NCBI RefSeq assembly: GCF_963921235.1
Contig: NC_086097.1
Coordinates: 113,338,001-113,402,000 of the forward strand
DNA from: Mobula hypostoma
Taxonomy: Eukaryota
DNA: 64,000 nt
Direction: 5' to 3'
Part shown: one piece after another, positions 990 to 64,000 of the stretch
How positions within the stretch are numbered: position 1 is the first letter of the stretch
How the letters are laid out: each line of letters begins with the position of its first letter
Notes under the pieces: generated by a model
Seen by the model: only the letters and a program-made list of their open reading frames with translations
The model's database searches: none
Told to the model about the DNA's origin: nothing
Made by a program: the position numbers and the translations under genes

Positions 990-2029
990 GGTTGTTAGCA
1001 AGTAATTGCTGCTGAACAATTTTTCCAGTCATCAGCGAAGTCTGGAGAGCAAAGCCAAAGGTCCAATTTCAGAGATACAGTAGAAGCCTGAAAGTTGCAG
1101 ACTGAATATAGAGGTTCGAAGCAGCGACAAGTGCCCCAGTCACCGGGATCAGAATGAAGACCAGAAAGTCAAACCCATGATTGGCAAATCCTGTGGCAAA
1201 GTTGGAAGTTAGAGGCCTGGAGGTGGCCTGTCAAGGAGATGGAGGCCAGTCTGTGTTTATCTATCTGAGGGGTGGGTGGGTGGGAGAAAGGAAGTGTAGG
1301 AAAGGGCTTTATGGATGACAGGAGAAATTGTTTTCTGCTTACTTGTTGATGTTGTTGTTGCTTGGCTGTTTTGCTGAACATTCTCGGCATGCTATCTTTG
1401 CACCGGAACGTGTGGCGACATTTGTGACCCGTCCCCAGCACATCCTTGGGTATGTTTGTTATTAATGCAAATGACACACTTCATTGTATGTGTCAATGTA
1501 CACGATAAATAAACGTGAATCCGAATCTGCAGGGCACTGTGGCGCGAGGAGTCAGGTTCCATAATCTGCGCCTCACTATTGCTCGTTGACCACTCAGCCA
1601 CGGGGTGACCTTGATGTACGGCAGCTCTTGCACAATTTGATCTATTTGTACCTCATTTTAAACAGGTTATACCCCAGTATGGTCTGATGGATTTACACCT
1701 GGAGATTAATTGCGATTATGAGGATAATGAAATATTCAAGGGCTGTGATGAATTTTTCTGTCATTTTGAAAGATGATTAGTAGATTTAAAGACTTTAGAA
1801 CCAAGACTTTAAAGACATTAAAGGCTTTAGACAGGAATTCTAATTGTTTCCATCTAACACAAAACAAATCACTATTATAAATCTTCATTATTAAACAGTT
1901 GATGAATATGTCAATCAAAATGGAGATACCTACCATTACTGATTCAAAGGTAATGCAGTTGAGCTTTTGCAGTTAAGGAAGAGCTTTAATTAAAAATTAA
2001 ATTATTTAGTTACATTACGTACTTTTTTG

Positions 2030-2560
2030 CTATAGATTACAAGTGCTGGAGATTGTAGAGGCATTAGAAGACCATGGTAATACAGGCAAGCTACCAGCAT
2101 GGATAGATGATTAGCTGACAGGCAGAAGGCAAAGAGTAGGGCTAAGGTGGCCTTTTCAGGTTGAATACTGGTGTCTAGTAGCGTTCTGTAGGTATTGGTT
2201 TAGGGTCTGCCACTTTTCATATCCTGTGTTAGTGATCTGGATGATGGAACCAATGGCTTTGCAGCCAGGTTTGTGGATGACACAAACATAGGTCGAGGGG
2301 CAGGTAGTGTTGATGAAGCAGGGGTTCTACAGAAGAACTTGGGAGAATGGGCAAAGAATTGGCAGGTGGAAGGCAGTGCAGAGATATGTATCGTCATGCA
2401 CCTTGATCAAAAAAGAACAAAGAGAGAATTCAGAAATTGGAGGTGCAAAGGGATTTGAGAGAACTAGTGTGGGATTCATTAAAGGTTAACTTGTAAGATG
2501 AGTTGGTAGTAAGGAAGACAAAAGCAAAAAAGTTGGCGCAGACTCATTGCTCTTATGCTT
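2030..2560 (+). mobile_element. Old degenerate CR1 RT fragments
   Basis: Remnants of WLTGRRQRVG, FVDDTNIG and LGEWAKNWQ motifs. Confidence 0.65.
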
Positions 2561-2749
2561 TATGGTGTTAAAATCATTTTCAAAAGTATTGCTTTGTAAC
2601 ATATTCACTCAACTGAAGGAAGTCATTGAATCTGTAGCAATACGAGTTAACATTAACATAGAGTTAAATAATTTCAAACTGCCTTGTCATCAAGCCTCTG
2701 AATATCTGTAGCAGGACTGGTTAACACACACCAGTCCTCATAGACGGAT

Positions 2750-3077
2750 CCAAAGTGGAAAGTGTGAGCAATTTCAAGTTCCTGGGTATTTATATTTCTG
2801 AGGATCTATCCAAGGACCAACATATAAATGCAGCTACAAAGAAGGCAGGACAGCACTATACTTCATAAGGAGTTTGAGGAGATTTAGTATGTCATCAAAA
2901 ACACTCGCAAATTTCTGTAGATGTACCGTGGAGAGCATTCTAACTGGCTGCATCACCGTCTGGTATGGGTGAGGGAGGAGGTGCTTCTGCACAGGATCGA
3001 AATAAGCTGCAGAGTTGAAAACTTAGTCAACTCCACAATGGGCACTAGCCTCCACAGTTTCCAGGACATCTTCAAAG
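2750..3077 (+). mobile_element. Rex1/Babar-like 3' ORF fragment
   Basis: Similar to 37805-38140 (FKFLG...CTVESILTGCITVWYG). Confidence 0.7.
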
Positions 3078-3219
3078 ACTTTGTACCTGGAGCTTCTGTA
3101 ACTTTTTTGGTTGCCAGATTTGAATGCCTCTGATCTGGCCCTCTGCAGATTTCAGATCTCATGGTTCATCCAGGCTTCTGGTTGGGGAAGACCCCGAATG
3201 ATTTTGCAGGGACACACTT

Positions 3220-3952
3220 GTGGCCGATTAGGAAAAGGGAAGGTGCAACGAGACCTGGGTGTCATTATACACCAGTCATTGAAAGTGGGCATGCAGGTAC
3301 AGCAGAAGGTGAAAAAGGCGAATGGTATGCTGGCATTTATAGCAAGAGGATTCGAGTACAGGAGCAGGGAAGTACTACTGCAGTTGTACAAGGCCTTGGT
3401 GAGACCACACCTGGAGTATTGTGTGTAGTTTTGGTCCCCTAATCTGAGGAAAGACGTCCTTGCCTTAGAGGGAGTACAAAGAAGGTTCACCAGATTGATT
3501 CCTGGGATGGCAGGACTTTGATATGATGAAAGACTGGATCAACTAGGCTTATACTCGTTGAAATTTAGAAGATTGAGGGGGGATCTGATTGAAACGTATA
3601 AAATCCTAAAGGGATTGGACAAGCTAGATGCAGGAAGATTGTTCCCGATGTTGGGGAAGTCCAGAACGAGGGGTCACAGTTTGAGGATAAAGGGGAAGCT
3701 TTTTAGGACCGAGATTAGGAAAAACTTCTTCACACAGAGAGTGGTGAATCTGTGGAATTCTCTGCCACAGGAAACAGTTGAGGCCAGTTCATTGGCTATA
3801 TTTAAGAGGGAGTTAGATATGGCCCTTGTGGCTAAAGGGATCAGGGGTATGGAGGGAAGGCTGGTGCAGGGTTCAGAGTTGGATGATCAGCCATGATCAT
3901 ACTGAATGGCGGTGCAGGCTCGAAGGGCCTGCACCTATTTTCTATGTTTCTA
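3220..3952 (+). mobile_element. 5'-truncated CR1 LINE (young family)
   Basis: Matches the 3' end of the CR1 at 7390-10188; in-frame stops; ends in (ttctatgt)n tail. Confidence 0.92.
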
Positions 3953-4506
3953 CAACTGTTAGGTTTATATACTTTCTTTAACATTATACTTGATTAACTT
4001 GGAAGGACAATAGAAGGGAAGCATCCAAAAGATTAACAGTGAAGGTCTGCCTAGGATTCATTTACTTGTCTTTGCTGAGTGAACAAGTGTAGAAATTATG
4101 CAAGGCTAGTAGCAACAGCTTTTTTTTAAAATTAAAGGTGACATAATCAACAATCTCATTAATAGATCCTTTATTTTTGCTAATGACTGCAATCAATGAT
4201 GATCATATGGCAATTCTAAATAACAGCTGGATGATCAATTTATTAAAATACAATGAGAATAAGAAACAGATACTTAAATGTGTTTATTCATCTCTACTCT
4301 TGACTCATGAAAATAAATCACGTCTCATCCAGACTGCAGAAACATGTTTTTATGATTTCATTTTAGAATACCAACATTATCTTAAAAAAAAAACTTGACA
4401 CCCTAGTTCCATATTTTCATCACTGAAGCCTAGGATTAGTACTAAATGAGTTTACTGCTCATGACAGCTGTAAATGTTTATCTGACATTAGATTGGTAAT
4501 GTAATT

Positions 4507-4512
4507 TTTATT
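4507..4512 (-). promoter_or_regulatory. Candidate polyadenylation signal of DCAF13 (alternatives at 4283-4288 and 4170-4175)
   Basis: AATAAA on the minus strand about 100 nt after the stop codon; usage not testable from sequence. Confidence 0.4.
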
Positions 4513-4615
4513 TCATGCAATTACTTCCAGATAAGTTAGTATCCATTAAAACAATACAAAATGTCAATTCTGAAATATTGTCCAATAATTATTATACAAT
4601 GCAGTAACACAACAG

Positions 4616-4703
4616 CTATTTCACCACAGCCACAATATGCTTCTTCCTCTCAGCAACAAGTGGTACAGATCCTGGTTTGCTGTGCTTGCGAAGGTTCAGT
4701 TGT
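4616..4703 (-). CDS. dcaf13: DCAF13 last coding exon 11 (88 nt including TAG)
   Basis: QLNLRKHSKPGSVPLVAERKKHIVAVVK*; ttttctttcAG acceptor. Confidence 0.95.
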
Positions 4704-5954
4704 CTGAAAGAAAAATTAATTTAGAATGAGATATTTTTACTTGGTAAGCGATTGCTCAAACACAGACTTGTGTTTTTCTCTACTACTATTTTCTTTCCCC
4801 AAACATTCCACACATAAGCCTTACCACGCATTTTTGGTGCGAAGTAGCCAACCTGTCTATTCAACTTACTTTATCAGTTTCTATATTAGGTTCTCCTATA
4901 ATAATTCAGAGTAAACAGCATAAATTCAACATTAGATTTCCTTTGGGTTTATAAAACTAACTGATTAATATCAAACCAGCTGTCACACAGGGGAAAAGAA
5001 GCATCACTGCTTGATAACTTTCATTTCCCTGTAATTAGTTTTTCCATATGCACATCATAAACAATCATACATATTATGTATATTAATACATAATTCATAT
5101 GTGAATAAATATTTGAATTATGTAGTGATACAGACGTAAGTTTGGACTTTGGCAGTTTAAAAGATTAACTTAAAAAACATCATTTTTCTGCATCCCTTTT
5201 GCATTTTAAATTGGAAATGGTCATGTCGACATTAACTAATAGCGTGAATATAATTCAAACGACCTAATGAAATAAAAGCTAGGATGAAATCTACAAAACT
5301 GAACAGCAAGACAGGTATGAAGTTTTTTACTTTAATCAGAACCAATAATCAAATAAAGTTAGCAAATTAAGGAAATGTAACCAAGACAGTTATAAGGATA
5401 CTGTACTTCATAATATAATGCCGCTCGGTGTTATGCATGAGGCAGCAAACACAACCTTCTATTCAGAATTGTTATTACTTTATGATTATAAAGCCACTCC
5501 CTGTACTCAAAAAGGATACAATTTTGTGGAAGACCAAGCCAGACTTATTACAAAATATTTATTATTATGAGCTTTATTAGTAATTTATAGCTTTTATCAT
5601 TACCAAAACTGTAATTCTTAATTAATTCAATATAATCCCTCTCCGGTTGAAGAATAAAATGAGTATCATCAACTTTGGCCAGTCCCAGTGCTGCACAGCT
5701 GCAATTTTAAATCTCGAGCTCAAGGCATGTTTGTTATAAAATAAAATGCTAAGCTGTACCTGATTATAATAAATATGCTCAAATCAATCAATTTATATCT
5801 GAGCTGACCAACAGTAGAACACTGAACTGAGGCCAGAGTTCAGGTTTATCATGAAGCATTTAGAAGCAGAGATACAAAATTGCTGTTCTGTTCTTCACTT
5901 ACATATGTCTAAATAGACTGTAGCATAATCCAGGATTAGTACCTTGGAACTAGA

Positions 5955-7389: not shown

Positions 7390-10188
7390 ATAGAAACATA
7401 GAAAATAGGTGCAGGAGTAGGCCATTCGGCCCTTCGAGCCTGCACCGCCATTTATTATGATCATGGCTGATCATCCAACTCAGAACCCAGCCTTCCCTCC
7501 ATACCCCGTGACCCCTGTAGCCACAAGGGCCATATCTAACTTCCTTTTAAACATAGCTAATGAACTGGCCTCAACAGTTTGCTGTGGCAGAGAATTCCAC
7601 AGATTCACCACTCTCTGTGTGAAGAAGTTTTTCCTAACCTCGGTCCTAAAAGGCTTCCCCTCTATCCTCAAACTGTGACCCCTCGTTCTAGACCTCCCCA
7701 ACATCGGGAACAATCTTCCCGCATCTAGCCTGTCCAATCCCTTTAGGATCTTATACGTTTCAATCAGATCCCCCCTCAATCTTCTAAATTCCAACGAGTA
7801 CAAGCCCAGTTCATCCAGTCTTTCTTCATATGAAAGACCTGCCATCCCAGGAATCAATCTGGTGAACCTTCTTTGTACTCCCTCTATGGCAAGGATGTCT
7901 TTCCTCAGATTAGGGGACCAAAACTGCACACAATACTCCAGGTGTGGTCTCACCAAGGCCTTGTACAACTGCAGTAGTACCTCCCTGCTCCTGTACTCGA
8001 ATCCTCTCGCTATAAATGCCAGCATACCGTTCGCCTTTTTCACCGCCTGCTGTACCTGCATGCCCACTTTCAATGACTGGTGTATAATGACACCCAGGTC
8101 TCGTTGCACCTCCCCTTTTCCTAATCGGCCACCATTCAGATAATAATCTGTTTTCCTATTTTTGCCACCAAAGTGGATAACTTCACATTTATCCACATTA
8201 AATTGCATCTGCCATGAGTTTGCCCACTCACCCAACCTATCCAAGTCACCCTGCATCCTCTTAGCATCCTCCTCACTGCTAACACTGCCACCCAGCTTCG
8301 TGTCATCCGCAAACTTGGAGATGCTGCATTTAATTCCCTCATCCAAGTCATTAATATATATTGTAAACAACTGGGGTCCCAGCACTGAGCCTTGCGGTAC
8401 CCCACTAGTCACCGCCTGCCATTCTGAAAAGGTCCCGTTTATTCCCACTCTTTGCTTCCTGTCTGCTAACCAATTCTCCACCCACACCAATACCTTACCC
8501 CCAATACCATGTGCTTTAAGTTTGCACACTAATCTCCTGTGTGGGACCTTGTCAAAAGCCTTTTGAAAATCCAAATATACCACATCCACTGGTTCTCCCC
8601 TATCCACTCTACTAGTTACATCCTCAAAAAATTCTATGAGATTCGTCAGACATGATTTTCCTTTCACAAATCCATGCTGACTTTGTCCGATCATTTCACC
8701 GCTTTCCAAATGTGCTGTTATCACATCCTTGATAACTGACTCCAGCAGTTTCCCCACCACCGACGTTAGGCTAACCGGCCTATAATTCCCCGGTTTCTCT
8801 CTCCCTCCTTTTTTAAAAAGTGGGGTTACATTAGCCACCCTCCAATCCTCAGGAACTAGTCCAGAATCTAACGAGTTTTGAAAAATTATCACTAATGCAT
8901 CCACTATTTCTTGGGCCACTTCCTTAAGCACTCTGGGATGCAGACCATCTGGCCCTGGGGATTTATCTGCCTTCAATCCCTTCAATTTACCTAACACCAC
9001 TTCCCTACTAACATGCATTTCGCTCAGTTCCTCCATCTCACTGGACCCTCTGTCCCTTACTATTTCTGGAAGATTATTTATGTCCTCCTTAGTGAAGACA
9101 GAACCAAAGTAATTATTCAATTGGTCTGCCATGTCCTTGCTCCCCATAATCAATTCACCTGTTTCTGTTTGCAGGGGACCTACATTTGTCTTTATCAGTC
9201 TTTTCCTTTTTACATATCTATAAAAGCTTTTACAGTCCGTTTTTATGTTCTCTGCCAGTTTTCTCTCATAATCTTTTTTCCCCTTCCTAATTAAGCCCTT
9301 TGTCCTCCTCTGCTGAACTCTGAATTTCTCCCAGTCCTCAGGTGAGCCACTTTCTCTGGCTAATTTGTATGCTACTTCTTTGGAATTGATACTATCCCTA
9401 ATTTCTCTTGTCAGCCACGGGTGCACTACCTTCCTTGATTTATTCTTTTGCCAAACTGGGATGAACAATTGTTGTAGTTCATCCATGCAACCTTTAAATG
9501 CCTGCCATTGCATATCCACCGTCAATCCTTGAAGTGTCATTTGCCAGTCTATCTTAGCTAATTCATGTCTCATACCTTCAAAGTTACCCCTCTTTAAGTT
9601 CAGAACCTTTGTTTCTGAATTAACTACGTCACTCTCCATGTTAATGAAGAATTCCACCATATTATGGTCACTCTTACCCAAGGGGCCTCTCACGACAAGA
9701 TCGCTAATTAACCCTTCCTCATTGCTCAAAACCCAGTCCAGAATAGCCTGCTCTCTAGTCGGTTCCTCGACATGTTGGTTCAAAAAACCATCCCGCATAC
9801 ATTCCAAGAAATCCTCTTCCTCAGCACCTTTACCAATTTGGTTCACCCAGTCTACATGTAGATTGAAGTCACCCATTATAACTGCTGTTCCTTTATTGCA
9901 CACATTTCTAATTTCCTGTTTAATACCATCTCCGACCTCACTACTACTGTTAGGTGGCCTGTACACAACTCCCACCAGCGTCTTCTGCCCCTTAGTGTTA
10001 CGCAGCTCTACCCATATCGATTCCACATCTTCCCGGCTTATGTCCTTCCTTTCTATTGCGTTAATCTCTTTTTTAACCAGCAACGCCACCCCACCTCCCC
10101 TTCCTTCGTGTCTATCCCTCCTGAATATTGAATATCCCTGAACGTCGAGCTCCCATCCCTGGTCACCCTGGAGCCATGTCTCTGTGAT
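7390..10188 (-). mobile_element. CR1 LINE, 5'-truncated in the APE domain, ORF2 open (7480-10188)
   Basis: APE (ITETWL, GDFN, SDHN), RT (GVPQGSVLGP, FADD), 3' stem-loop and (TTCTATGT)n tail. Confidence 0.97.
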
Positions 10189-10657
10189 AAAACAAAGTAA
10201 GTAATCCATTTTAAAAACCTGCCTTAGTTAAACAAAGGAAAACAACTTAATTTTTCATGTTTTAATGAAAGAAAATCATTTAAAAGGAATTCTTTGGGTT
10301 TTCTATCATGTGTGGGAAATTTTAAGTACTGATAAAAATTTTAAGTGGTAGTGATAAACAGATGTGCAGTGGATTCTGGTTAATTGGTCCATCGGTTAAT
10401 TAAGGCAGCCATTTATTTGGGACACTATGCTGCTTAATTGGGGCAGAAGACTGGTGCTAAACAGTTTTTGAACTAGCATCAGTTGCATGCACATGTGTGG
10501 CTGTTAAACTGTGCTTAGCATGACCAATTTTTAACTAGTGCCAGTTTTTTGCATTTGTGTTTCAAAAGCCATGATTTTTGTGACTGACAGTTGGTGAGAA
10601 ATAAACAGTAGGAGAATTCAGAATTGTTCTGCTCACTGCGGTTTCTAGCATTCAGGC

Positions 10658-30593: not shown

Positions 30594-33440
30594 CATAGAA
30601 ACATAGAAAATATGTGCAGGAGTAGGCCATTCGGCCCTTTGAGCCTGCACCGCCATTTATTATGATCATGGCTGATCCTCCAACTCAGAACCCCGCCCCA
30701 GCCTTCCCTCCATACCCCCTGACCCCTGTAGCCACAAGGCCCATATCTAACTCCCTCTTAAATATAGCCAATGAACTGGCCTCAACTGTTTCCTGTGGCA
30801 GAGAATTCCACAGATTCACCACTCTCTGTGTGAAGAAGTTTTTCCTAATCTCGGTCCTAAAAGGCCTCCCCTCTATCCTCAAACTGTGGCCCCTCGTTCT
30901 GGACTTCCCCAACATCGGGAACAATCTTCCTGCATCTAGCTTGTCCAATCCCTTTAGGATTTTATACGTTTCAATCAGATCCCCCCTCAATCTTCTAAAT
31001 TCCAACGAGTATAAGCCCAGTTCATCCAGTCTTTCTTCATATGAAAGTCCTGCCATCCCAGGAATCAATCTGGTGAACCTTCTTTGTACTCCCTCTATGG
31101 CAAGGATGTCTTTCCTCAGATTAGGGGACCAAAACTGCACACAATACTCCAGGTGTGGTCTCACCAAGGCCTTGTACAACTGCAGTAGTACCTCCCTGCT
31201 CCTGTACTCGAATCCTCTCGCTATAAATGCCAGCATACCATTCGCCTTTTTCACCGCCTGCTGTACCTGCATGCCCACTTTCAATGACTGGTGTATAATG
31301 ACACCCAGGTCTCGTTGCACCTCCCCTTTTCCTAATCGGCCACCATTCAGATAATAATCTGTTTTCCTATTTTTGCCACCAAAGTGGATAACTTCACATT
31401 TATCCACATTAAATTGTATCTGCCATGAGTTTGCCCACTCACCCAACCTATCCAAGTCACCCTGCATCCTCTTAGCATCCTCCTCACAGCTAACACTGCC
31501 ACCCAGCTTCGTGTCATCCACAAACTTGGAGATGCTGCATTTAATTCCCTCATCCAAGTCATTAATATATATTGTAAACAACTGGGGTCCCAGCACTGAG
31601 CCTTGCGGTACCCCACTAGTCACCGCCTGCCATTCTGAAAAGGTCCCGTTTATTCCCACTCTTTGCTTCCTGTCTGCTAACCAATTCTCCACCCACACCA
31701 ATACCTTACCCCCAATACCATTTGCTTTAAGTTTGCACACTAATCTCCTGTGTGGGACCTTGTCAAAAGCCTTTTGAAAATCCAAATATACCACATCCAC
31801 TGGTTCTCCCCTATCCACTCTACTAGTTACATCCTCAAAAAATTCTATGAGATTCGTCAGACATGATTTTCCTTTCACAAATCCATGCTGACTTTGTCCG
31901 ATCATTTCACCGCTTTCCAAATGTGCTGTTATCACATCCTTGATAACTGACTCCAGCAGTTTCCCCACCACCGACGTTAGGCTAACCGGTCTATAATTCC
32001 CCGGTTTCTCTCTCCCTCCTTTTTTAAAAAGTGGAGTTACATTAGCCACCCTCCAATCCTCAGGAACTAGTCCAGAATCTAACGAGTTTTGAAAAATTAT
32101 CACTAATGCATCCACTATTTCTTGAGCTACTTCCTTAAGCACTCTAGGATGCAGACCATCTGGCCCTGGGGATTTATCTGCCTTCAATCCCTTCAATTTA
32201 CCTAACACCACTTCCCTACTAACATGTATTTCGCTCAGTTCCTCCATCTCACTGGACCCTCTGTCCCTTACTATTTCTGGAAGATTATTTATGTCCTCCT
32301 TAGTGAAGACAGAACCAAAGTAATTATTCAATTGGTCTGCCACGTCCTTGCTCCCCATAATCAATTCACCTGTTTCTGTCTGCAGGGGACCTACATTTGT
32401 CTTTACCAGTCTTTTCCTTTTCACATATCTATAAAAGCTTTTACAGTCCGTTTTTATGTTCCCTGCCAGTTTTCTCTCATAATCTTTTTTCCCCTTCCTG
32501 ATTAAGCCCTTTGTCCTCCTCTGCTGAACTCTGAATTTCTCCCAGTCCTCAGGTGAGCCACTTTCTCTGGCTAATTTGTATGCTTCTTCTTTGGAATTGA
32601 TACTATCCCTAATTTCTCTTGTCAGCCACGGGTGCACTACCTTCCTTGATTTATTCTTTTGCCAAACTGGGATGAACAATTGTTGTAGTTCATCCATGCA
32701 ACCGTTAAATGCTTGCCATTGCATATCCACCGTCAATCCTTTAAGTGTCATTTGCCAGTCTATCTTAGCTAATTCACGTCTCATACCTTCAAAGTTACCC
32801 CTCTTTAAGTTCAGAACCTTTGTTTCTGAATTAACTATGTCACTCTCCATCTTAATGAAGAATTCCACCATATTATGGTCACTCTTACCCAAGGGGCCTC
32901 TCACGACAAAATTGCTAATTAACCCTTCCTCATTGCTCAAAACCCAGTCCAGAATAGCCTGCTCTCTAGTTGGTTCCTCGACATGTTGGTTCAAAAAACC
33001 ATCCCGCATACATTCCAAGAAATCCTCTTCCTCAGCACCTTTACCAATTTGGTTCACCCAATCTACATGTAGATTGAAGTCACCCATTATAACTGCCGTT
33101 CCTTTATTGCACACATTTCTAATTTCCTGTTTAATACCATCTCCGACCTCACTACTACAGTTAGGTGGCCTGTACACAACTCCCACCAGCGTCTTCTGCC
33201 CCTTAGTGTTACGCAGCTCTACCCATATCGATTCCACATCTTCCCGGCTTATGTCCTTCCTTTCTATTGCGTTAATCTCTTCTTTAACCAGCAACGCCAC
33301 CGCACCTCCCCTTCCTTCATGTCTATCCCTCCTGAATATTGAATATCCCTGAACGTTGAGCTCCCATCCCTGGTCACGCTGGAGCCATGTCTCTGTGATC
33401 CCAACTATATCATAATCATTAATAACAATCTGCACTTTCA
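30594..33440 (-). mobile_element. CR1 LINE, 5'-truncated, ORF2 open (30685-33441)
   Basis: Near-identical to 7390-10188; RT motif reads FVDD instead of FADD. Confidence 0.97.
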
Positions 33441-33504
33441 TGTAGTGGGGTATTAGTAAAACTAACCTAATATGCTGCTATATGCCTGGAAGAAGGGCTG
33501 CTTT

Positions 33505-45760: not shown

Positions 45761-47004
45761 CCGTAAATTCCGGTGTATAAGCTGAGAATTTGGTTCTAAA
45801 TTTTGGTCCTAAAATTAGAGGGTCGGCTTATACAGAGGAACTTTGGAAAAATGAATACGCGGAAGACAAGTCGTATTTATTGGCTGTTTTTGAGTCAAAT
45901 TCATTCCACTGTCGATGCATGAATTCTTTGAATGGTTTGTTTAAACACATCTAGTGGCTGGAGCACGGACATCAAACCACCAGGGATGACTGTAATATTC
46001 ATATTTTCAGCTTTCAGTGCTGCTTTTGTCTCACCTGACAAGTGCGCTTTGAACATGTCCCAGACAAGTAGCAACTTTTCCTTCCCGAAACCTTCAGGAC
46101 GTCAACGCCACACCTCTTTAACTCACTTCAAGCAACCCACTTCGTCCATCCAGCAGCATTTTTGGACGTAAACAACAACACCCCGCGGGAATTTTCTGAG
46201 CAATCTTTGTTTTTTGTCTCAACACAGGATCACATCTATTCATAAATCGGGTGCACCAACTTCGCATAGCTTTGAAATTTTCGCTGACCTCATGGTGTTT
46301 TTCGTCCCATTTCAATGCTTGAACTCGAATCATTTCTCTGGTAACAATGTATCCAGATGATCGCTGGTGATTCACCCACTGTAAAACTTTTTCTTCCAGT
46401 TCTGGCCACTGACATGTTTTCCCGTGGTTTGCACATTTCGTCTTTAGCATTTCCCTCAGCATGTCCTCTGCCTTTCTCCACCCTCTCACTTGTTTCTCAT
46501 TTACACTAAACTTCTTAGCAGTGGCAGAATTATTCGGTCCTTCAGCAAAATCAACAACCTTCAGCTTGAGGCCAGCATCATAACGCATTCGTTTTAATCT
46601 TTTGTACATGGTGGTCGCAAACTCAATACTGAGTACACGTACTGATCCCACCACCCCGTGTTATGTTTTAACGAGATTACGATGGGCGCTAAATGGTTTC
46701 ACGGGAGTATAGGATTCTTTACCATTGGAGACCTAATCCAAAATTTCCCTCCTTGATTTATTTATGAAGAATTTGCTTATAACCCTCTACAATGTGTAGG
46801 CCTGTTTTCTTAGCAGGTACTGGTTCACAAAATTTCCAGGTTCCGGACCCGGCAAAGCTGAGTACCAGCATGTGAGATCTTGTGATCTTTTCTGGTTAAA
46901 TCAAAAACCTCTACTAAAGGGGTCGGCTTATACAAAGGTAACATGAAAAAGTCACTTTTTTAACCTTGAAAATGTGGGGTCGTCTTATACTCCGGAATAT
47001 ACGG
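45761..47004 (-). mobile_element. pogo-superfamily (POGK/Passer-like) transposon, internally deleted
   Basis: TA TSDs; TIR ccgtaaattccggtgtataag / cttatactccggaatatacgg; Brinker-type DBD + CENP-B HTH, DDE remnants LLVWDMFKAHL and IPGG..LQPLDV. Confidence 0.9.
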
Positions 47005-51247: not shown

Positions 51248-51479
51248 GATAAGATATGTTTTTTGCCTGTAACATGAATCCTATGTTTTAACAAACTTGT
51301 TTTGTCTCAATTTAAGAAATACAGGGGACTTCCGGTAGCGCTCATGGAGTGAAGTCGCGTTCTTGACTCGCTCCATTACCTCTGAGTTTTTTTTCTCTAT
51401 GGTCAGCTATACTTTAATTAACCATTAAGGCATCAATTCTTACAATACTTTGAATTAAACTGAATTCTCCGACAATTGG

Positions 51480-52379
51480 ATGGAACTTAGATCTGCTATG
51501 TCTAAGAACGGGAAAAACGGCAAGGATGGTAAACCTCCGGTCAAACCGAAAGCTACGGATCTCCCCCCGACTGAATCACCGGTGACTTTGAAAGCGATAT
51601 CGGAGTTAATTCAGAGGGAAATTTCAACCTCTGTTAGGGAGATGATTCGTACGGAAATTGCAGGCTCTGTTAAAGACCTGATTCATACGGAAATCTGAAC
51701 TAATTTCCAGAAAATTGCCGATTTAATTGATAAGATGCAAACATGTATTGCGGAACATCAGTCGGCTATATCTGATCTTCAAAAATTCGCGCAACAAAGT
51801 GAGCTTAAGATGGGGAAAATCGAAGAAACAATTAATGTAATGAAGAAGAAACTTGACTTTTTGACTTTTAAAAACTCTGACCTGGAATCTAGAATGCGAC
51901 GGCAGAATTTACGAATGATTGGCGTGAGGGAAGCCGTGGAATCCAACAATCCCATGAAATATTTTTCTCAACTTTTAAAAGATGCATTCCCTACTGTATT
52001 TCCTGACCAACCACCGCTTCTGGATCGTGTTCACAGAATCCCATCATATTCGTCTAGGTCAGATAGACCTAGGCATGTTATTTTACGTTTTCATTATTTT
52101 CAAGACAAGGAGAGACTGTTTCAATTCGCTCGATCTAAAGGTTTCATTGATTTTTCGGATCTTAGGTTCCGATTCGTGGAAGATTTCAGTAAACCAATCT
52201 GGGACCAACGGGTTCGTTACAGATCCGTGATGTCGGAATTCTATAAGATGGATTTAAGACCAGCGCTGCTGTACCCTGCACGTCTAAGGATTCGCATGTC
52301 AGATGGAGCCCTTCGTTTTTTTGATTCTCCATCGGATGCCCAGAGTTATCTGGATCAACTTTCATCTTCAACATCTTAA
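51480..52379 (+). pseudogene. L1 ORF1p (299 codons, internal TGA at 51696)
   Basis: Coiled coil, DLESRMRRQNLRMIG, LDRVHR, PRHVILRF, LLYPARLRI motifs in one frame. Confidence 0.92.
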
Positions 52380-53101
52380 TTGCTTTTTTTTAATTATCTC
52401 CGTTGATCGGAGGCTGTGAATTGGTTGGTTTTAACTTTTTCGTGCCCTATTTGGGCAGAAAAGTTTACTTTTGATTTCTTAATATGGTTGCTAAACTTTC
52501 TTTTTAACTGCGTCATTTCTTTCTTTTCCCAGGGGATTCTGGGTGGTTACTTCCCTTTTGTCATCTTACGTATTTCCTGTGTGGCCTTAAATTTTGTAGT
52601 TTTTTTTTAAATTTTATTCTGTTTTGCTTTTTATAACCACTTTATGTCAATAATCTTATTGTTTCTTGTTGCTGTGTCTATTCATGGGTTTGAGGTTTAT
52701 TGTGGGGTTTTTTTAATATATATTTTCCGGCTTTTGTTCTGTTCTGTGTGTATTTTAATTGAGCTACATTTTTTTTTTACTTTTTTACTGTTTTACAATT
52801 AGCTGATCCTTTTTCATATTTATACCTTTTTTTTTAGGGAGTGTATACCGGAAGTCATGGGGGTAGTTTTAGCGCTTGCTTCTTTCTGGCGGGTCTGCTT
52901 TAGATTTTGCCTTGGGGTCTTGGGGTGGGGGGTGGTGGGAGGGGCTTCACGTTTTAGTTTCTTTCTCTTTGGGCTATATACATTATTGAAGTACTGGTTG
53001 CGTCCTTTTTCCCGGTATCTTTTGTATGTTCTGTTTCCTCTCCGGGTTTGTGGGTCGCGCCTATCGTCAATCCTCCTTGTTGTGGGTTGACTTTAGGATT
53101 T

Positions 53102-56100
53102 ATGGAGTCTATTATTAATTTTGTCTCCTGGAATACTAATGGTCTTAATCATCCTATTAAAAGGAAAAAAGTTTTTAAAGTGTTCCGGAGACTTAAAGCA
53201 CAAATTTTATTTTTACAAGAGACCCATGTACGGAGGGGGGACAGACTACGTTTTTTCAAATTCTGGAAGGGACAACAATTTCATTCGAACTCCAATGCTA
53301 AGATTCGAGGCGTCTCTATTTTTATAGATTCCTCAGTTACTTTTATACAACAGGATATTGTTTCTGATCCGAATGGTAGATTTTTATTGGTTAGTGGTTT
53401 ACTATTTAATAAAAAAGTAGTTTTGGTTAATGTTTATGCTCCTAATATGGATTGTCCGGAATTTTATAAATCATTGTTCGATCAGTTTCCGAATTTGAAC
53501 GAGTTTTCATTGATCTGGGGTGGAGATCTTAATACCTGTTTGTCTCCAGCTTTGGACCGTTCGGCTCCTTTACGGACTTTACCTAATAAATCTGCAAATC
53601 TGATTAATTTTTTCCTTTCTGATTCTGGGTCGACGGACATTTGGCGTTTTCTGCATCCTCAGGAAAAAGATTTTTCCTTCTTTTCACATGTTCATCATTC
53701 CTATTCAAGAATTGATTATTTTTTCATTGATTCTCGTCTTATTCCTTCAGTGATTAAATGTGATTATGATTCTATAACCATTTCGGATCATGCTCCACTT
53801 AAGCTTTCTATTAAAATTATGGCCAATATACCGAATAATAGACAATGGCGTTTTAATTCGCTGTTGCTTCAGGACTCGGACTTTGTTAATTTTATGAATG
53901 AACAGATTGAGCTTTTTTTTACAATTAACCATATAGAAGATATTTCGGTTAACACTCTTTGGGACACTTTTAAAGCCTATATTCGGGGTCAGATTATTTC
54001 GTATTCTGTTGCTTTGAGGAAGAAACAGAAGTAGGAGGAGATGGTAATTGTGGACAAGATTAAAGAAATTGATAAGAAATATGTTATGGCTCCTTCTGAG
54101 GAGTTATATAAACAAAGAACTGAACTTCAAATGGAACACAGTTTACTACTCTCGTCCTCGATTGTAAACCAATTAAAGAAAACAAGAAGTGACTTTTATG
54201 CTCACAGTGACAAAATTGGCAAGCTGCTGGCTAATCAATTGAAATCTAATTATGTTAAATCTCAAATCAATCAGATTTATAACCAAAATGATCGATTGAT
54301 ACTGGATCATTTGGGGATTAACCAAACCTTTTGTGATTTTTATTCTTCTTTATATCAATCAGAGTCTCCTCGAGATTCTAAATATATGAATGATTTTTTA
54401 GATAAGTTAGACTTCCCTCAGATTTCATAGGATATGTCTTCCTTATTAGATACTTCCATTACAATGGATGAGATTAAGAATGTTATTTTTTCTATGAATC
54501 TGGGGAAAGCTCCTGGCCCTGATGGGTTTACCGTTGAATTTTATAAATGTTTTGCTTCTTTATTGATTCCTTGGCTCGGTAGGGTTTTTGAGGCTTCTTT
54601 GAAACTTGGTAAACTTCCTGAATCTTTTAATAGAGCATCAATTTCTCTAATATTAAAGAAGGATAAAGACCCTGCTCAATGTGCATCTTATAGACCAATA
54701 TCTTTATTAAATGTTGATTCTAAAGTTTTTTCTAAGTTATTAGCAAATAGACTAGAAAAAGTACTTCCTTCTATTATTTCGGAGGACCAAACGGGTTTTA
54801 TTAAAGGTCGTTACTCTTTTTATAATATTCGTACATTGTTAAATATCGTTTATACTCCCTCACAAAATGTTCCTGAGTGTGTTACTTCTTTAGATGCCGA
54901 GAAAGCTTTTGATAGAGTAGAATGGCCTTATTTATTTAAGGTGCTTGAAATGTTTAATTTTAGCTTGAGATTTATATCCTGGATTAAACTGTTATATCAC
55001 TCCCCTGTAGCCTCGGTTCGTACTAACTCTTTAAACTCACCTTTTTTTCCTCTCTTTCGTGGTACTCGACAAGGCTGTCCTCTTAGTCCCCTATTATTTG
55101 ATATTGCATTAGAACCTCTTGCAATTGCTATTCGAGAATCTTCAAATATTACTGGGATAACTCGGGGATTAAAGTCCCATAAATTATCACTCTATGCTGA
55201 TGATTTACTTTTATATATCTCTAATCCTGAGAGATCCATTCCTGCTGTTTTAGAGTTATTAGCACAATTTGGTCTTTTCTCAGGTTATAAATTAAATCTT
55301 AGTAAGAGTGAACTTTTTCCGATTAATAAACATCTTCCCCTATATTATAAATTTCCATTTAAATTGATTAATAATTACTTTTCATATCTTGGGATTAAAA
55401 TTACTTGTAAATACAAAGATTTATTTAAGACTAACTTTTTACCATTAATAGACCATATTACTCAACTTTCATCTAAATGGTTTCCTTTATATTTAACTTT
55501 GATTGGTCGTATTAATGCGGTTAAGATGTCTTTTTTGCCAAAATTTTTATATGTGTTTCAGGCATTACCAATTTTCGTTCCAAAATCTTTTTTTGATAAA
55601 GTTGACTCTAAAATTTCTTCATTTATTTGGCAGAATAAGAATCCGAGACTGGGTAAAATACATTTACAGAAAGCTAAGAGAGATGGAGGTTTAGCATTAC
55701 CTAACTTTAGATTCTATTATTGGGCTATTAATATTCGACATATGAAATTTTGGTTACTTGACCAGGACATACTATCTATTCCTAAATGGGTAGCATTGGA
55801 ATTACAATCGGTTCAGGGTTATACACTTGGTTCTATTTTAGGCTCCTCTCTCCCTTTTGATTCGAAACGTCTTAAGCAGGTCTCTAACCCGATAGTTAAA
55901 TATGCTTTGCGCATTTGGTTTCAATTCAGAAAATTTTTTGATCTTAATCAATTCGGGTTAGCGATTCCTATTTTAGGTAACATATTTTTTCCTCCCTCTT
56001 TTACGGATCGCGCTTTTCAAACTTGGAAGACTAAGGGTATTTTACGGTTTTTGGATTTATTTTTAGATGGTTCCCTTATGTCTTTTGAACAATTATCTAA

Positions 56101-56875
56101 TAAATATAACTTATCAAGAATACATTTTTTTAGATATTTACAAGTTAGAAATTTCCTAAGTACTATACTTTCTTCCTTTCCAATGCTTCCTCCTACATAT
56201 ATTTTAGATTCGATAATTAACCTTAATCCATGTCAGAAAGGTGCATCGGCTATGATTTATAATATTATTATGAAACTTAGGAAAGCTCCATTTGATAAGA
56301 TTAGGGTAGATTGGGAACAGGAATTGGGGCTTACCATTTCTGTGGATGATTGGGGGCAGATTTTACAATTAGTTAATACTTCCTCTATTTGTGCTAAACA
56401 TTCCCTAATTCAATTTAAAGTGGTTCATAGAGCACATATGTCCAAAGATAAGTTAGCGCGTTTTTACTCGCATATTAATCCTTTCTGTGATAGATGTTCG
56501 GGGCAGATAGCCTCTTTAACTCATATGTTTTGGTCTTGCCCTGCTTTGGAAACTTTTTGGAGAGATATTTTCAATATTATTTCTAAGGTATTAAATATAG
56601 ATATCTCTCACCCTATTACTGCTATCTTTGGACTACCTAAAATTTCTAGTAATCTTTCCCCTTCAGCCCGTAGAATGATTGCATTTCTTACTTTAATGGC
56701 GAAAAGATGTATTTTACAACATTGGAAAGAGCTTAATGCTCCAACTACCTTTTTTTGGTTTTCTCAGACGATTTTATGTTTGAATTTGGAGAAAATTAGA
56801 AGTAACGTTTATGATTCTTCATTTAAATTTGAACAGATTTGGGGACCTTTTATTCGATATTTTCATTTAATGTAA
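53102..56875 (+). pseudogene. L1 ORF2p (APE-RT-CCHC; internal TAG at 54032 and 54428)
   Basis: [46 protein letters not shown]; single frame. Confidence 0.95.
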
Positions 56876-58104
56876 TACTTACCCTTCTTGTTTTTTTTTC
56901 ACTGTTTTTAATGGAGGTCGGGATTGAGGACGTGATTTTAAGTTTAACTCTGTTTGGTTTCAAGTTAGCCCATTGCTTTGCTTTGCTTTTAGTTAGCTGC
57001 ACGGTGGGTTTTTTTTGGGGGGTTTTTTTTTCTTTTTCTTTCCATTGATATATATAAAATTTAGTATACTATTATGTTATCTTGGTTTCTTATGTTTAAA
57101 TTACATTGTTTGTAGTAATTTCTTTTTGGTATTGATATCTTTTGGAATTTTATTATACTTTAACATTGTATTAATGTTTATATGGCTTACCTTTTTTGTA
57201 TACTTACTCAATAAAAAGATTTAAAAAGAAAGAAAGAAAGAAATACAGAATAACAATTTCCTTTGAAAAAGTCAGTAAAGTGGTTGATATGAAAAATATA
57301 ACAGCCAAAAACAGAGAAAAGTGCTTCTGTGATTTGGAGTTAAAGCGTGTTTTTGCAGAACAACACAAGTAATTTCACAATATATTCAACCAATGATTCA
57401 ACTGAAGTATGTACCAATCTCTGGCAATGACAAGCATAATCTTGGTGACACTAACATTTAAAGCACAGGCATATCTCCAAGAAACAGAACCACATAAACA
57501 TTATAATGCAACAGAAGCATTGGCATCAACATATAGCCAAGTCTAACCTGGGCTACCTTTTTAAAATGACACGGTATAAATTCCTACAATATAGCTGGAT
57601 GTGAAGGTCAATTAAAAACCTATAACAAACTTGTACATTTTAATGAATGACTTCCATTACGCCCTAAGATACATCTGGTTAATGGTGAAAAAGTTTTCAG
57701 GTGTTAAAAGGTAAAGCACTTATTGCGGTCAGCATAGCTTCTGGCCACTCTTGTAATCTCTATATGGGCAATCCAATTCAGTTTCTGCTCCATGGTGGCC
57801 ATTAGCAATTCAAAACAATGCCAAGGAGAGACGGACATACCATAACTTGAGGCAGATCATCATTGGAAACAACTTTAAACATGGTAGATCACCAGTAAAT
57901 ATTTGTACTTCAAACCCCATGATGGCAGGACAGTCATTGATATGCTAACTGCAGATGGTTAGGCCTACTAACCTGTCCTGAGAAATTTCTGTAGCTAAGT
58001 CCATGGACTGGGGTGATCAATTTCTAATTCTCCGAATTATATTCCTTAGCAGAGTAGAAGTCCACTCAGTACAGTGATCCCCTCTTGATCGAAAATCTAC
58101 AGAA

Positions 58105-58950: not shown

Positions 58951-60240
58951 ACATAGAAACATAGAAAATAGATGCAGAAGTAGGCTATTCAGCCCTTCAA
59001 GCCTGCACTGCCATTCAGTATGATCATGGCTAATCATCCAACTCAGAATCCTGTACCTGCCTTCTCTCCATACGTCCTGATCCCTTTAGCCACAAGGGCC
59101 ATATCTAACTCCCTCTTAAATATAGCCGATCCAGTCTTTCATCATATGAAAGTCCTGCCATCCCAGGAATCAATCTGGTGAACCTTCTTTGTACTCCCTC
59201 TATGGCAAGAATGTCTTTCCTCAGATTAGGGGACCAAAACTGCACACAATACTCCAGGTGTGGTCTCACCAAGGCCTTGTACAACTGCAGTAGTACCTCC
59301 TTGTTCCTGTACTCGAATCCTCTTGCTATGAATGCCAGCATACCATTCGCCTTTTTCACCACCTGCTGTACCTGCATGCCCATTTTCAATGACTGGTGTA
59401 CAATGACACCCAGGTCTCGTTGCACCTCCCCTTTTCCCAATCGGCCACCATTCAGATAATAATCTGTTTTCCTGTTCTTGCCACCAAAGTGGATAATCTC
59501 ACATTTATCCACATTAAATTGCATCTGCCATGAATTTGCCCACTCACCCAACCTATCCAAGTCACCCTGCATCCTCTTAGCATCCTCCTCACAGCTAACA
59601 CTGCCACCCAGCTTCGTGTCATCCGCAAACTTGGAGATGCTGCTTTTAATTCCCTCATCTAAGTCATTAATATATATTGTAAACAACTGGGGTCCCAGCA
59701 CTGATCCTTGCGGTACCCCACTAGTCACTGCCTGCCATTCTGAAAAGGTCCCATTCATTCCCACTCTTTGCTTCCTCTGTCTGCCAACCAATTCTCTATC
59801 CACATCAATACCATACCCCCAATACCGTGTGCTTTAAGTCTGCACACTAATCTCCTGTGTGGGACCCTGTCAAAAGCCTTTTGAAAATCCAAATATACCA
59901 CATCCACTGGTTCTCCCCTTCCACTCTACTAGTTACATCCTCAAAAAATTCTATGAGATTCGTCAGACATGATTTTCCTTTCACAAATCCATGCTGACTT
60001 TGTCTGATGATTTCACCGCTTTCCAAATGTGCTGTTATCACATCTTTGATAACTGACTCTAGCAGTTTCCCCACCATCGATGTTAGGCTAACCGGTCTAT
60101 AATTCCCCGGTTTCTCTCTCCTTCCTTTTTTAAAAAGCGAGGTTACATTAGCCACCCTCCAATCCTCAGGAACTAGTCCAGAATCTAAAGAGTTTTGAAA
60201 AATTATCACTAATGCATCCACTATTTCTTGGGCTACTTCC
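58950..60240 (-). mobile_element. CR1 LINE (same family), with a 3' internal deletion and frameshifts, interrupted by L1
   Basis: Collinear with the 30594 copy apart from a gap of about 250 bp near 59128. Confidence 0.93.
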
Positions 60241-63200
60241 TTTCTTTTTAAGTCTTTTTATTGAGTAGGTACACAGAAGGTAAACCATATAGGCACGAAT
60301 ACACTGTTAGAATATATTACAGGAAATATTAATACAGAAAAAAATTAATACAGTGCAATTTAAACATAAAATAACAAGGTAATATAATAGTATACTAATT
60401 TTTATATATATCAATAGAAAAAGAAAAAAAAACCCAAAAAAAACCACCGTGCAACTAAACTAAAAAGCAAAGCAAAGCAATGGGCTAACTAGGAAACAAG
60501 TAGAGTTAATGAACTTAAAATCACGTCCTCAAACCCGACCTCCATTAAAAACAGTTAAAAAAAACAAGAAGGGAATATAAATATGGACCGAGAGAAAAAA
60601 AATTACATTAAATGAAAATGTTGAATAAAAGATCTCCAGGTCTGATCGAATTTAACTGAAGAATCACAAAGATTACTTCTAATTTTCTCCAAATTTAAGC
60701 ATAGTATCGTCTGGGAAAACCAAAAAAAAAACGTAGTTGCAGCATTAGTCTCCTTCCAATGTTGTAAAATACATCTTTTCGCCATTAAAGTAAGAAACGC
60801 AATCATTCTACGGGCTGAAGGAGAAAGATTACTGGAAATTTTAGGTAATCCAAAGATAGCAGCAATAGGATGAGGAGAGATATCTATAATCAATACCTTT
60901 GAGATAATATTAAAAATGTCTCTCCAAAACGTTTCCAGAGTAGGACAGGACCAAAACATATGAGTTAAAGAGGCTATCTGCCCCTGACATCTAACACAAA
61001 AAGGATTAATATGAGAATAGAAATGAGCTAATTTATCTTTGGACATATGTGCTCTATGGACAACTTTAAATTGAATTAGGGAATGTTTAGCACAGATAGA
61101 GGAAATATTGACTAGTTGTAAAATCTGCACCCAGTCATCCGCCAAAATAATAAAACCCAATTCCTGTTCCCAATCTGACCTAATCTTATCAAATGGAGCT
61201 TTCCTAAGTTTCATAATAATATTATAAATAATAGCAGTTGCACCTTTTTGACATGGATTAGGGTTAATTATAGTATCTAAAATATATGTGGGAGGGAGCA
61301 TTGGAAAGGAAAAAAAGTATAGTACTTCGGAAATTTCTAACTTGGAGATATCTAAAAAATGTATTCTTAGTAAACTATATTTATTAGATAATTGTTCAAA
61401 AGACATAAGGGAACCATCTAAAAATAAATCCAAAAACCGTGAAATACCCTTAGTCTTCCAAATTTGAAAAGCACGATCCGTGAAAGAGGGAGGAAAAAAC
61501 GTTACCTAAATCAGGGATCGCTAGCCCAAATTGGTTAAGATCGAAAAATTTTCTGAATTGAAACCAAATACGTAAGGTATATTTAATTATCGGGTTACAG
61601 ACCTGTTTGTGGCGTTTCAAATCAAAAGGAAGAGAAGAACCTAAAATAGAGCCAAGTGCATAATCTTGAGCAGATTGTAATTCCAATACTACCCATTTAG
61701 GAATGGATAGTGTATCTTGATCAAGTAACCAAAATTTCATGTGTCGAATATTAATTGCCCAATAATAGAACCTAAAGTTAGGTAATGCTAAACCTCCATC
61801 TCTCTTAGCTTTTTGTAAATGTATTTTACCCAGTCTCGGGTTTTTATTTTGCCAAATAAATGAAGAGATTTTAGAGTCAACTTTATCAAAAAATGATTTT
61901 GGAACAAAAATCGACAATGCCTGAAATATATATAAAAATTTTGGCAGAATAAACATCTTAACTGCATTAATACGACCAATCAAAGTTAACTATAATGGAG
62001 ACCATTTAAATGAAAGTTGAGTAATATGATCAATTAAGGGAAAAAATTAGTCTTAAATAGATGTTTGTGTTTACAAGTAATTTTAATCCCAAGATATGAA
62101 AAATAATTATTAATCAATTTAAACGGAAGGTTATGATACAAGGGAAGTTGCTTATTAATCCGGAAAAGTTCACTCTTACTGAGATTTAACTTGTAACCGG
62201 AAAAGAAACTAAATTGTGCTAATAAATCTAAAGCAGCAGGGATAGATTTTTGAGGATTAGAAATATATAAAAGTAAGTCATCAGCATAAAGTGATACTTT
62301 ATGAGACTTTAAGCCCCAAGTTATCCCAATAATATTTGGAGATTCTCGAATAGCAATTGCAAGAGATTCTAATGCACCTCTTGCAATTGCTATTCGAGAA
62401 TCTTCAAATATTACTGGGATAACTCGGGGATTAAAGTCCCATAAATTATCACTCTATGCTGATGATTTACTTTTATATATTTCTAATCCTGAGAGATCCA
62501 TTCCTGCTGTTTTAGAGTTATTAGCACAATTTGGTCTTTTCTCAGGTTATAAATTAAATCTTAGTAAGTGTGAACTTTTTCCGATTAATAAACATCTTCC
62601 CTTATATTATAAATTTCCATTTAAATTGATTAATAATTACTTTTCATATCTTGGGATTAAAATTACTTGTAAACATAAAGATTTATTTAAGACTAACTTT
62701 TTACCATTAATAGACCATATTACTCAACTTTCATCTAAATGGTTTCCCTTATATTTAACTTTGATTGGTCGTATTAATGCAGTTAAGATGTTTTTTTTGC
62801 CAAAATTTTTATATGTGTTTCAGGCATTACCAATTTTCGTTCCTAAATCTTTTTTTGATAAAGTTGACTCTAAAATTTCTTCATTTATTTGGCAGAATAA
62901 GAATCCGAGACTGGGTAAAATACATTTACAGAAAGCTAAGAGAGATGGAGGTTTAGCATTACCTAACTTTAGATTTTATTATTGGGCTATTAATATTCGA
63001 CATATGAAATTTTGGTTACTTGACCGGGACATACTATCTATTCCTAAATGGGTAGCATTGGAATTACAATCTGTTCAGGGTTATACACTTGGTTCTATTT
63101 TAGGTTCCTCTCTTCCTTTTGATTCGAAACGCCTTAAGCAGGTCTCTAACCCGATAGTTAAATATGCTTTGCGCATTTGGTTTCAATTCAGAAAATTTTT

Positions 63201-64000
63201 TGATCTTAATCAATTCGGGTTAGCGATTCCTATTTTAGGTAACATATTTTTTCCTCCCTCTTTTACGGATCGCGCTTTTCAAACTTGGAAGACTAAGGGT
63301 ATTTTACAAGTAACCTTTATGATTCTTCATTTAAATTTGAACAGATTTGGGGACCTTTTATTCGATATTTTCATTTAATGTAATATTTACCCTTCTTGTT
63401 TTTTCTTCACTGTTTTAATGGAGGTCGGGATTGAGGACGTGATTTTAAGTTTAACTCTGTTTGGTTTCAAGTTAGCCCATTGCTTTGCTTTGCTTTTAGT
63501 TAGTTGCACGGTGGGTTTTTTTTTGGGTTTTTTTTTTTTCTTTTTTTTCCATTGATATATATAAAATCTAGTATACTATTATGTTATCTTGGTTTCTTAT
63601 GCTTAAATTACATTGTTTGTAGTATTTTCTTTTTGGTATTGTTATCTTTTGGAATTTTATTATACTTTAACATTGTATTAATGTTTATATGGCTTACCTT
63701 TTTTGTATACTTACTCAATAAAAAGATTTAAAAAGAAAAAGAAAGAAAGAAAGATTCTAATGCAATGTCAAATAATAAAGGACTAAGAGGACAACCTTGT
63801 CTAGTACCTCGAGAAAGAGGGGAAAAGGGTGAACTTAAAGAGTTAGTACGAACTGAGGCCATAGGAGAATGATATAACAATTTAATCCAGGATATAAATT
63901 TCGAGCTAAAATTAAACATTTCAAGCACCTTAAATAAGTAAGGCCATTCTACTCTGTCAAAGGCTTTTTCAGCATCTAAAGAAATAACTCACTCAGGAAC
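60241..64000 (-). mobile_element. Older L1 (3' part 60241-62376, resumes 63752-64000 and runs out of the window)
   Basis: Frameshifted ORF2 homologous to 53102-56875; AATAAA and GAAA tail at about 60241-60262. Confidence 0.93.
62377..63751 (+). mobile_element. Young 5'-truncated L1 nested in the older L1, with a 754-bp internal deletion
   Basis: 13-bp TSD agattctaatgca (62364-62376 / 63752-63764); near-identical to 55115-57237. Confidence 0.93.

Follow-up and report, generated by a model that had tools for sequence, protein, structure and literature searches.

Our results demonstrate that a young L1 in the genome of Mobula hypostoma begins at the position of its own element that is homologous to the site into which it inserted. 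It lies in what we call the window, the whole stretch of 64,000 nucleotides that was analyzed (contig NC_086097.1, positions 113,338,001 to 113,402,000), nested within an older, antiparallel L1. The coincidence of target site and truncation point was correctly described by the initial annotation, is real, and is probably mechanistic rather than a product of chance. The mechanism that we favor, with modest confidence, is that the target, once cut, exposed a 3' overhang that paired with the homologous L1 RNA and stopped reverse transcription, which would amount to twin priming in which the inverted piece has zero length.

Structure of the nested insertion

The features of the locus are as follows.

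51325 to 57237, plus strand: full-length young sibling used as the coordinate reference, with its own 11-bp TSD at 51314-51324 and 57238-57248
60241 to 62376, minus strand: 3' part of the older-subfamily L1, corresponding to sibling 57236 down to 55105; left inverted-repeat arm
62340 to 62403, no strand: perfect inverted arms of 26 bp (62340-62365 and 62378-62403) around a 12-nt loop, from the window sequence and a DNA fold
62364 to 62376, plus strand: 5' TSD copy, 13 bp, whose reverse complement matches sibling 55105-55117
62377 to 63307, plus strand: 5' piece of the young L1 insert, equivalent to sibling 55115-56045, inside the ORF2 RT region
63308 to 63751, plus strand: 3' piece of the young L1 insert, equivalent to sibling 56800 to the 3' end, with an (AAAG)n tail
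63752 to 63764, plus strand: 3' TSD copy, 13 bp, read from the window sequence
63765 to 64000, minus strand: older L1 resumes from sibling 55104, 88% identical to the sibling and extending past the window end

Self-comparison and a three-way alignment confirmed that the young plus-strand L1 (62377-63751) sits within the older minus-strand L1 and is flanked by a TSD, agattctaatgca, found at 62364-62376 and again at 63752-63764. The simple 3' tail is (AAAG)n, not poly(A), and the first 3 bases of the TSD could equally be tail, so that the TSD length is 10-13 bp. The 5' junction shows 1-nt microhomology (62376, sibling 55114). With its source-family domains, TSD, simple tail and microhomology-joined 5' truncation, the insert is an L1-clade TPRT product, and judged from its sequence it is a recent one. 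Its 5' and 3' pieces are 98.4% and 96% identical to the sibling, and the older arm at 60241-62376 is 86.8% identical to it across 2,167 columns of the window self-comparison. Among the genome matches listed for the older L1, other copies are 95-96% identical to it. Past the window, the older L1 reaches element position 1413 and is followed by a CR1-like insertion and then by positions 1411-531.

Internally the insert lacks 754 bp (sibling 56046-56799), a deletion whose junction was found at 1 locus, the window's own, among the loci compared. Splicing was ruled out as its source, as there is no GT at the left end, and alignment revealed no clear haplotype switch across it. The gap could reflect two microhomology jumps via sibling 56134-56144 (window 63304-63311), and internal deletions are frequent in the family (L246, L308, L334, L433, L434 and L436). 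That the insert has lost sequence once lends something to the idea that a longer insert was later shortened at the center of the inverted repeat, an explanation that we regard as extremely improbable: the TSD is of normal length and adjoins the insert, and deletions in inverted repeats are expected to widen the spacer, not to remove it.

Elsewhere in the window, a second LINE with endonuclease and RT domains, which we take to be CR1-like, is present in three copies that are 96-98% alike (7390-10227 and 30595-33477, both on the minus strand, and 59129-60242). The 3' end of the old L1 adjoins one copy of this LINE, and past the window end the old L1 is interrupted by a further copy. A frame at 46118-46660 on the minus strand carries Brinker and Tc5 DNA-binding domains and appears to be the remnant of a pogo/Tigger-type transposase.

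The source family is abundant. The sibling has ORF1 (PF02994), endonuclease (PF03372) and RT (PF00078) domains, with zf-RVT (PF13966) below its cut-off; at least 24 other full-length copies are 98-99% identical to it among the best 26 scored, and the 3.48-Gb genome harbors 1,084 exact copies of one young 3' end. Family target sites have a purine-rich start matching the tail, without a strict consensus, and the median TSD is 12 bp (n=133 measured), so the 13-bp TSD of the window insert is ordinary. An atypical endonuclease site at the window target was considered and dropped, family targets being relaxed. Neither is this a sequence-specific (self-targeting) LINE: its target position varied across 431 tails, and nest targets span element positions 1841-5857. 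The window site being ordinary for the family, nothing suggests an unusual choice of target, and the earlier proposal that pairing had possibly guided that choice is not supported.

Start point, TSD footprint and inverted arms

Element positions are given below as window positions minus 51324, which places the footprint of the window nest at 3781-3793 and the start of its insert at 3791. Alignment bore out the claim that the TSD maps to sibling 55105-55117 and that the insert begins at 55115. The reverse complement of the TSD matches this segment at 12 of 13 bases, with the mismatch at 55115; this is the best match on the whole sibling, the next best being 10 of 13. The first base of the insert (62377) corresponds to sibling 55115, or 55114 if the 1-nt microhomology is counted, and thus falls inside the footprint of its own TSD. 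The 10 bases at the 3' end of the overhang would pair without a break with the RNA (3781-3790), and the insert starts 11 nt 3' of the site at which the overhang end would prime (+11). Two traits of twin priming are therefore present, namely, complementarity of the TSD 3' end to the RNA at the breakpoint (12/13) and a first strand that ends near the internal annealing site (+11 nt). A third, an inverted 5' segment between the TSD and the sense piece, is absent, and the sense piece directly follows the TSD.

For the window nest alone, the chance of a start in or adjoining the footprint is 0.18% for a 17-nt interval and 0.5% for a 48-nt interval, the latter derived from inverted copies; allowing for a locally higher density of starts near this position, it is 0.5%. 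Family inserts start at 3686, 3738, 3758, 3778-82 (L281) and 3810, which suggests a mild truncation hot zone around 3690-3810, close to the window start.

The long arms pair over about 930 bp, up to the 754-bp internal deletion, with 100 differences in 928 positions. The loop has 12 nt instead of the 11 nt first given, and the first 85 bp contain 8 differences where about 7 had been counted; the divergence itself stands, and with it the argument against a read fold-back artifact. Compared with four young copies at other loci, the 5' piece of the insert differs at 1 of 931 positions. The insert already carries the young allele at its first base, and old-type sequence continues in the left arm as far as the TSD. 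The 2 private alleles of the insert both lie where the old arm and the young copies agree, so no allele was taken from the old arm, and the young alleles from the first base onward show that the insert is not a fold-back copy, which rules out fold-back templating from the old arm. In a fold-back duplication or read artifact the arms would be identical from the turning point; these differ at the first base.

Long inverted repeats are hard to assemble, and the locus might in principle be an assembly or read fold-back artifact, or a fold-back copy of the target strand. We consider this very improbable given arms from two subfamilies, a tail of the insert's own, two TSD copies, a private internal deletion and a young first base. 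In four sets of public contigs from one sample, 62-71% of the junction-region words were present, and the contigs aligning to 60000-64000 were mostly other L1 copies. Of the 80 contig pieces matching 62342-62411 at 100% identity, none of the 32 listed spans the junction. One X2 contig (depth 36) crosses the site as an unbroken old element and could represent other old copies or an empty allele.

Antiparallel nests and inverted copies elsewhere in the genome

The prediction that breakpoints cluster at the target coordinate was examined in other antiparallel nests, which were selected by their 3' ends alone, blind to the 5' end. The search required the family 3' end followed within about 70 bases by antisense-L1-enriched motifs (nine patterns, 402 rows), and all listed places were examined except 6 whose flank was judged by eye to be CR1 or SINE. 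Together with loci from the search for the exact young 3' end, 431 distinct tails were screened, some of which are tails of target copies. The patterns cover 71% of antisense positions in the training set, and the window's own nest was not among the matches that any of them listed; two consecutive motif searches of the genome added no close nest. Sequence-similarity searches of the genome, with 26-40 candidates scored, listed no nests. Besides the window nest, 9 close nests (target at least 85% identical) were found.

A homology effect at the 5' end is absent from 7 of the 9. Five are full length (L170, L174, L190, L282 and L283), compared with 3-4 of 14 unselected copies, both being small numbers. 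L281 starts at 3778-82 with its target at 4123-39 and thus reads 345 nt past the target position. In L171, which is twin-primed at 2741 on a 2-nt microhomology with a sense start at 5548, the overhang has a near-perfect 19-nt complement on the RNA at its target position, 3958-3976, yet this was not used as the priming site. L171 (C50:63469774) and L172 (C80:29687895) are independent insertions at a common antisense-L1 site, 3958-3976, and the inverted piece of L329 starts within that site, at 3974. Among nests with targets 64-77% identical, the coincidence was found in 0 of 5 (L073, L176, L285, L401 and L402). L284 (G000:C21:23391500-23401499) was dropped as a nest: it is a tandem pair of twin-primed L1 copies in which one TSD occurs three times, between the two copies and on either side of the pair. 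L032 (G000:C91:52502000-52511999) was also dropped; it is a SINE-flanked inversion in an older L1, between inverted short-repeat copies, with a 62-bp inverted overlap.

A footprint match occurs in L173 (G000:C96:35371605-35371683), which sits in a full-length copy that has a 12-bp TSD of its own. The footprint is 5843-5857 and the sense piece starts at 5840-5843 (about +1); an inverted piece, 1353-979, is also present, the overhang having been extended from 1353. Inserts as short as this one, which begins 70 nt before the 3' end, are not rare: of 286 distinct inserts, 5840-5857 contains the start of 1 and 5812-5859 the starts of 4. With empirical starts, at least one footprint match would be expected among the 9 nests with a probability of 0.024 if the footprint is extended by 3-4 nt and of 0.062 if the 48-nt interval is used, the window nest having been left out since it was picked for its coincidence. 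A start at the target coordinate was thus seen in 1 of 9 close nests (L173) and is not general.

These counts bear on the possibility that the window insert is an ordinary 5'-truncated copy whose start happens to fall in the footprint and which was picked by scanning very many windows. Nothing about its 1-nt microhomology, 13-bp TSD or target sequence is out of the ordinary, no effect is seen in 7 of 9 close nests, the possible hot zone at 3690-3810 is close by, and the unbiased probability is only 0.02-0.06. Against this, 2 footprint matches among 10 close nests of one family compare with about 0.03-0.07 expected, and L172 shows homology acting in such nests. We judge coincidence to be unlikely.

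In L172 (G000:C80:29680900-29690899), the antisense left arm runs unbroken from 5910 to 619 with no 5' scar, followed by sense sequence from 4922 to the tail and then by the target again from 3976. The left part at 3957-1007 differs from the right part of the target at 48 of 2,944 sites and thus comes from another copy. Of 21 young copies compared, L183 is the nearest to the target (27/2,358), and the left segment 3977-4921 shows 22/945 differences from L183 and 6/945 from L180. The left arm has target-like alleles at 5811 and 5814 and insert-like alleles from 5771 on, so that the haplotype changes between 5811 and 5771, at a distance of 1.8 kb from the footprint. The replacement of about 1.8 kb of target points to DNA-level exchange or priming far from the footprint, unlike the window event. 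These alleles, assigned on few sites in a panel of mosaic lineages, point to a seamless resolution by homology. Annotation would read L172 as one long minus-strand copy, of which about 1.8 kb of the target 3' part carries the insert haplotype.

Two parallel arrangements were also observed. L034 (G000:C2:74647000-74656999) is a tandem of 2113-5913 and 4271-5914 with one outer TSD and no inner TSD, which may be a scarless parallel nest or an insertion into a tail. L177 (G000:C18:69666500-69676499) is a parallel nest whose insert is 90 bp long and whose target lacks about 440 bp (4287-4728).

5' inversions are common in the family. After removal of L172, L174 and L281 (nests), L097 (internal inversion) and L382 (start not covered) from 23 rows, 18 inverted copies remained. 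In 11 of these the sense start falls at -31 to +11 nt relative to the start of the inverted piece; in 6 the sense start lies 164-3768 nt further 3', and in 1 there is an overlap of 144. Where priming occurred in L035 and L051, the end of the TSD agrees with the RNA in 4 of 5 bases. The geometry of the 11 copies and the matches in L035 and L051 indicate that annealing of overhang to RNA works in this family and usually marks the end of the first strand. In L051, L102, L109, L329, L449, L171 and L173, the start of the inverted piece lies 0.5-4.5 kb upstream of that of the sense piece, leaving very large internal gaps.

Possible mechanisms and comparison with known systems

From the geometry, alleles and complementarity visible in the window we infer an order of cleavage, a stall and a jump. 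The bottom strand would have been nicked and priming would have occurred on the tail, followed by early top-strand cleavage that freed a 13-nt overhang before the enzyme reached the footprint. The freed overhang may have paired with RNA 3781-3793 (sibling 55105-55117), and the enzyme, after displacing two loosely paired bases and the mismatch at 3791, would have stalled at the 10-bp hybrid (3781-3790). It could then have jumped onto the overhang end held alongside, or the ends could have been joined through the 1-nt microhomology. The agreement between the start and the edge of this hybrid is a post hoc observation. Because this outcome requires early second-strand cleavage, most antiparallel nests would be unaffected, and the full-length nests would fit late cleavage. 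Two observations weigh against pairing: a 10-bp paired 3' end should prime well, yet no extension is seen in the window insert, and L171 and L173 were primed elsewhere. The suggestion that RNA-DNA pairing set the truncation point thus stands in part, with L173, the twin-primed geometry of 11 of 18 copies and the absence of any coincidence in 5 distant targets in its favor; as a general rule it fails (7 of 9 close nests, and L171). Footprint truncation is an occasional outcome with one independent event behind it.

RNase H cleavage of the hybrid would also place the stop inside the footprint; it fits poorly with the stop of L173 at the footprint's very edge. At the DNA level, a longer cDNA could have invaded the upstream arm and paired with the bottom strand as far as the nick (55118), its 3' flap then being trimmed to 3-4 nt. 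This predicts the same breakpoint, and the scarless arm and haplotype change of L172 speak for such a process. We nevertheless think it distinctly unlikely for the window, where the arms are 11-13% apart (100/928), the insert has no old-arm allele and the left arm keeps its old type right to the TSD; strand invasion at 87% identity should be disfavored. The scarless junction, haplotype exchange and target loss of a homology-resolved chimera are present in L172 and absent from the window, where the TSD is intact. Reporter assays nonetheless indicate, in the accessible text of 10.1101/2025.09.17.676864, that homology promotes L1 cDNA recombination.

Under the pairing mechanism, the cut target end would serve as a built-in antisense oligonucleotide that fixes truncation at the target's own coordinate and makes a near-perfect palindrome, and nests would be a natural experiment on L1 truncation; we hold this to be evenly balanced. 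If overhang-RNA pairing can set the truncation point, truncation and 5' inversion would be two outcomes of one intermediate, and the share of nests stopping at the footprint would measure how often the second strand is cleaved before reverse transcription ends. Antiparallel nests would then bear on the causes of L1 truncation, long palindromes with short loops would have a named route of origin, and there would be consequences for retrotransposon-based gene insertion where template and target have common sequence.

Twin priming, with its 5'-inverted L1 insertions, was reportedly described by Ostertag and Kazazian in 2001, and L1 chimeras and homology-driven cDNA recombination reportedly by Gilbert et al. 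in 2002 and 2005. As far as the accessible texts go, the window event resembles twin priming in that the top-strand 3' end pairs internally with the RNA, the first strand ends nearby and the TSD is in the range of 10-20 bp (PMC2912911, PMC4245944, 10.1101/2024.08.27.596794). Twin priming is described there as resting on short spurious complementarity (PMC2912911, 10.1101/2024.08.27.596794); the window pairing, unlike this, would be true homology (12/13) rather than a 2-5-nt spurious match, and there is no inverted segment.

The accessible part of PMC4245944 describes an annealing pathway in which the overhang is exposed before the first strand is completed, and early top-strand nicking is reported for human ORF2p (PMC7617806). 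Truncation after early exposure of the overhang and a microhomology join are common to these models and the window event. In those models, as presented, the overhang pairs with the cDNA, whereas in the window a match with either the RNA or the flanking arm would determine the position. As in L1 cDNA recombination (10.1101/2025.09.17.676864, accessible text), identity between element and target would decide the 5' resolution, and L172 resembles that class; in the window event, by contrast, the TSD is clean, no target was lost and no alleles were exchanged.

Antisense L1-in-L1 insertions are also common in humans, where Levy et al. recorded 21,559 sense and 9,899 antisense cases (PMC2836564). 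The accessible part of that study is about orientation and target hot spots and does not relate truncation points to target positions; its 9,899 antisense cases would allow the idea to be tested with existing genomes. Fold-backs at L1 breaks (10.1101/2024.12.14.628481) and antisense chimeras (PMC13174262) are described, in the accessible parts without truncation at the homologous position. A search by title or abstract, with most subscription papers outside its scope, found no report of a start coinciding with the footprint. Twin priming and nested L1 are thus known; within the literature covered, truncation at the target's own homologous position is not described.
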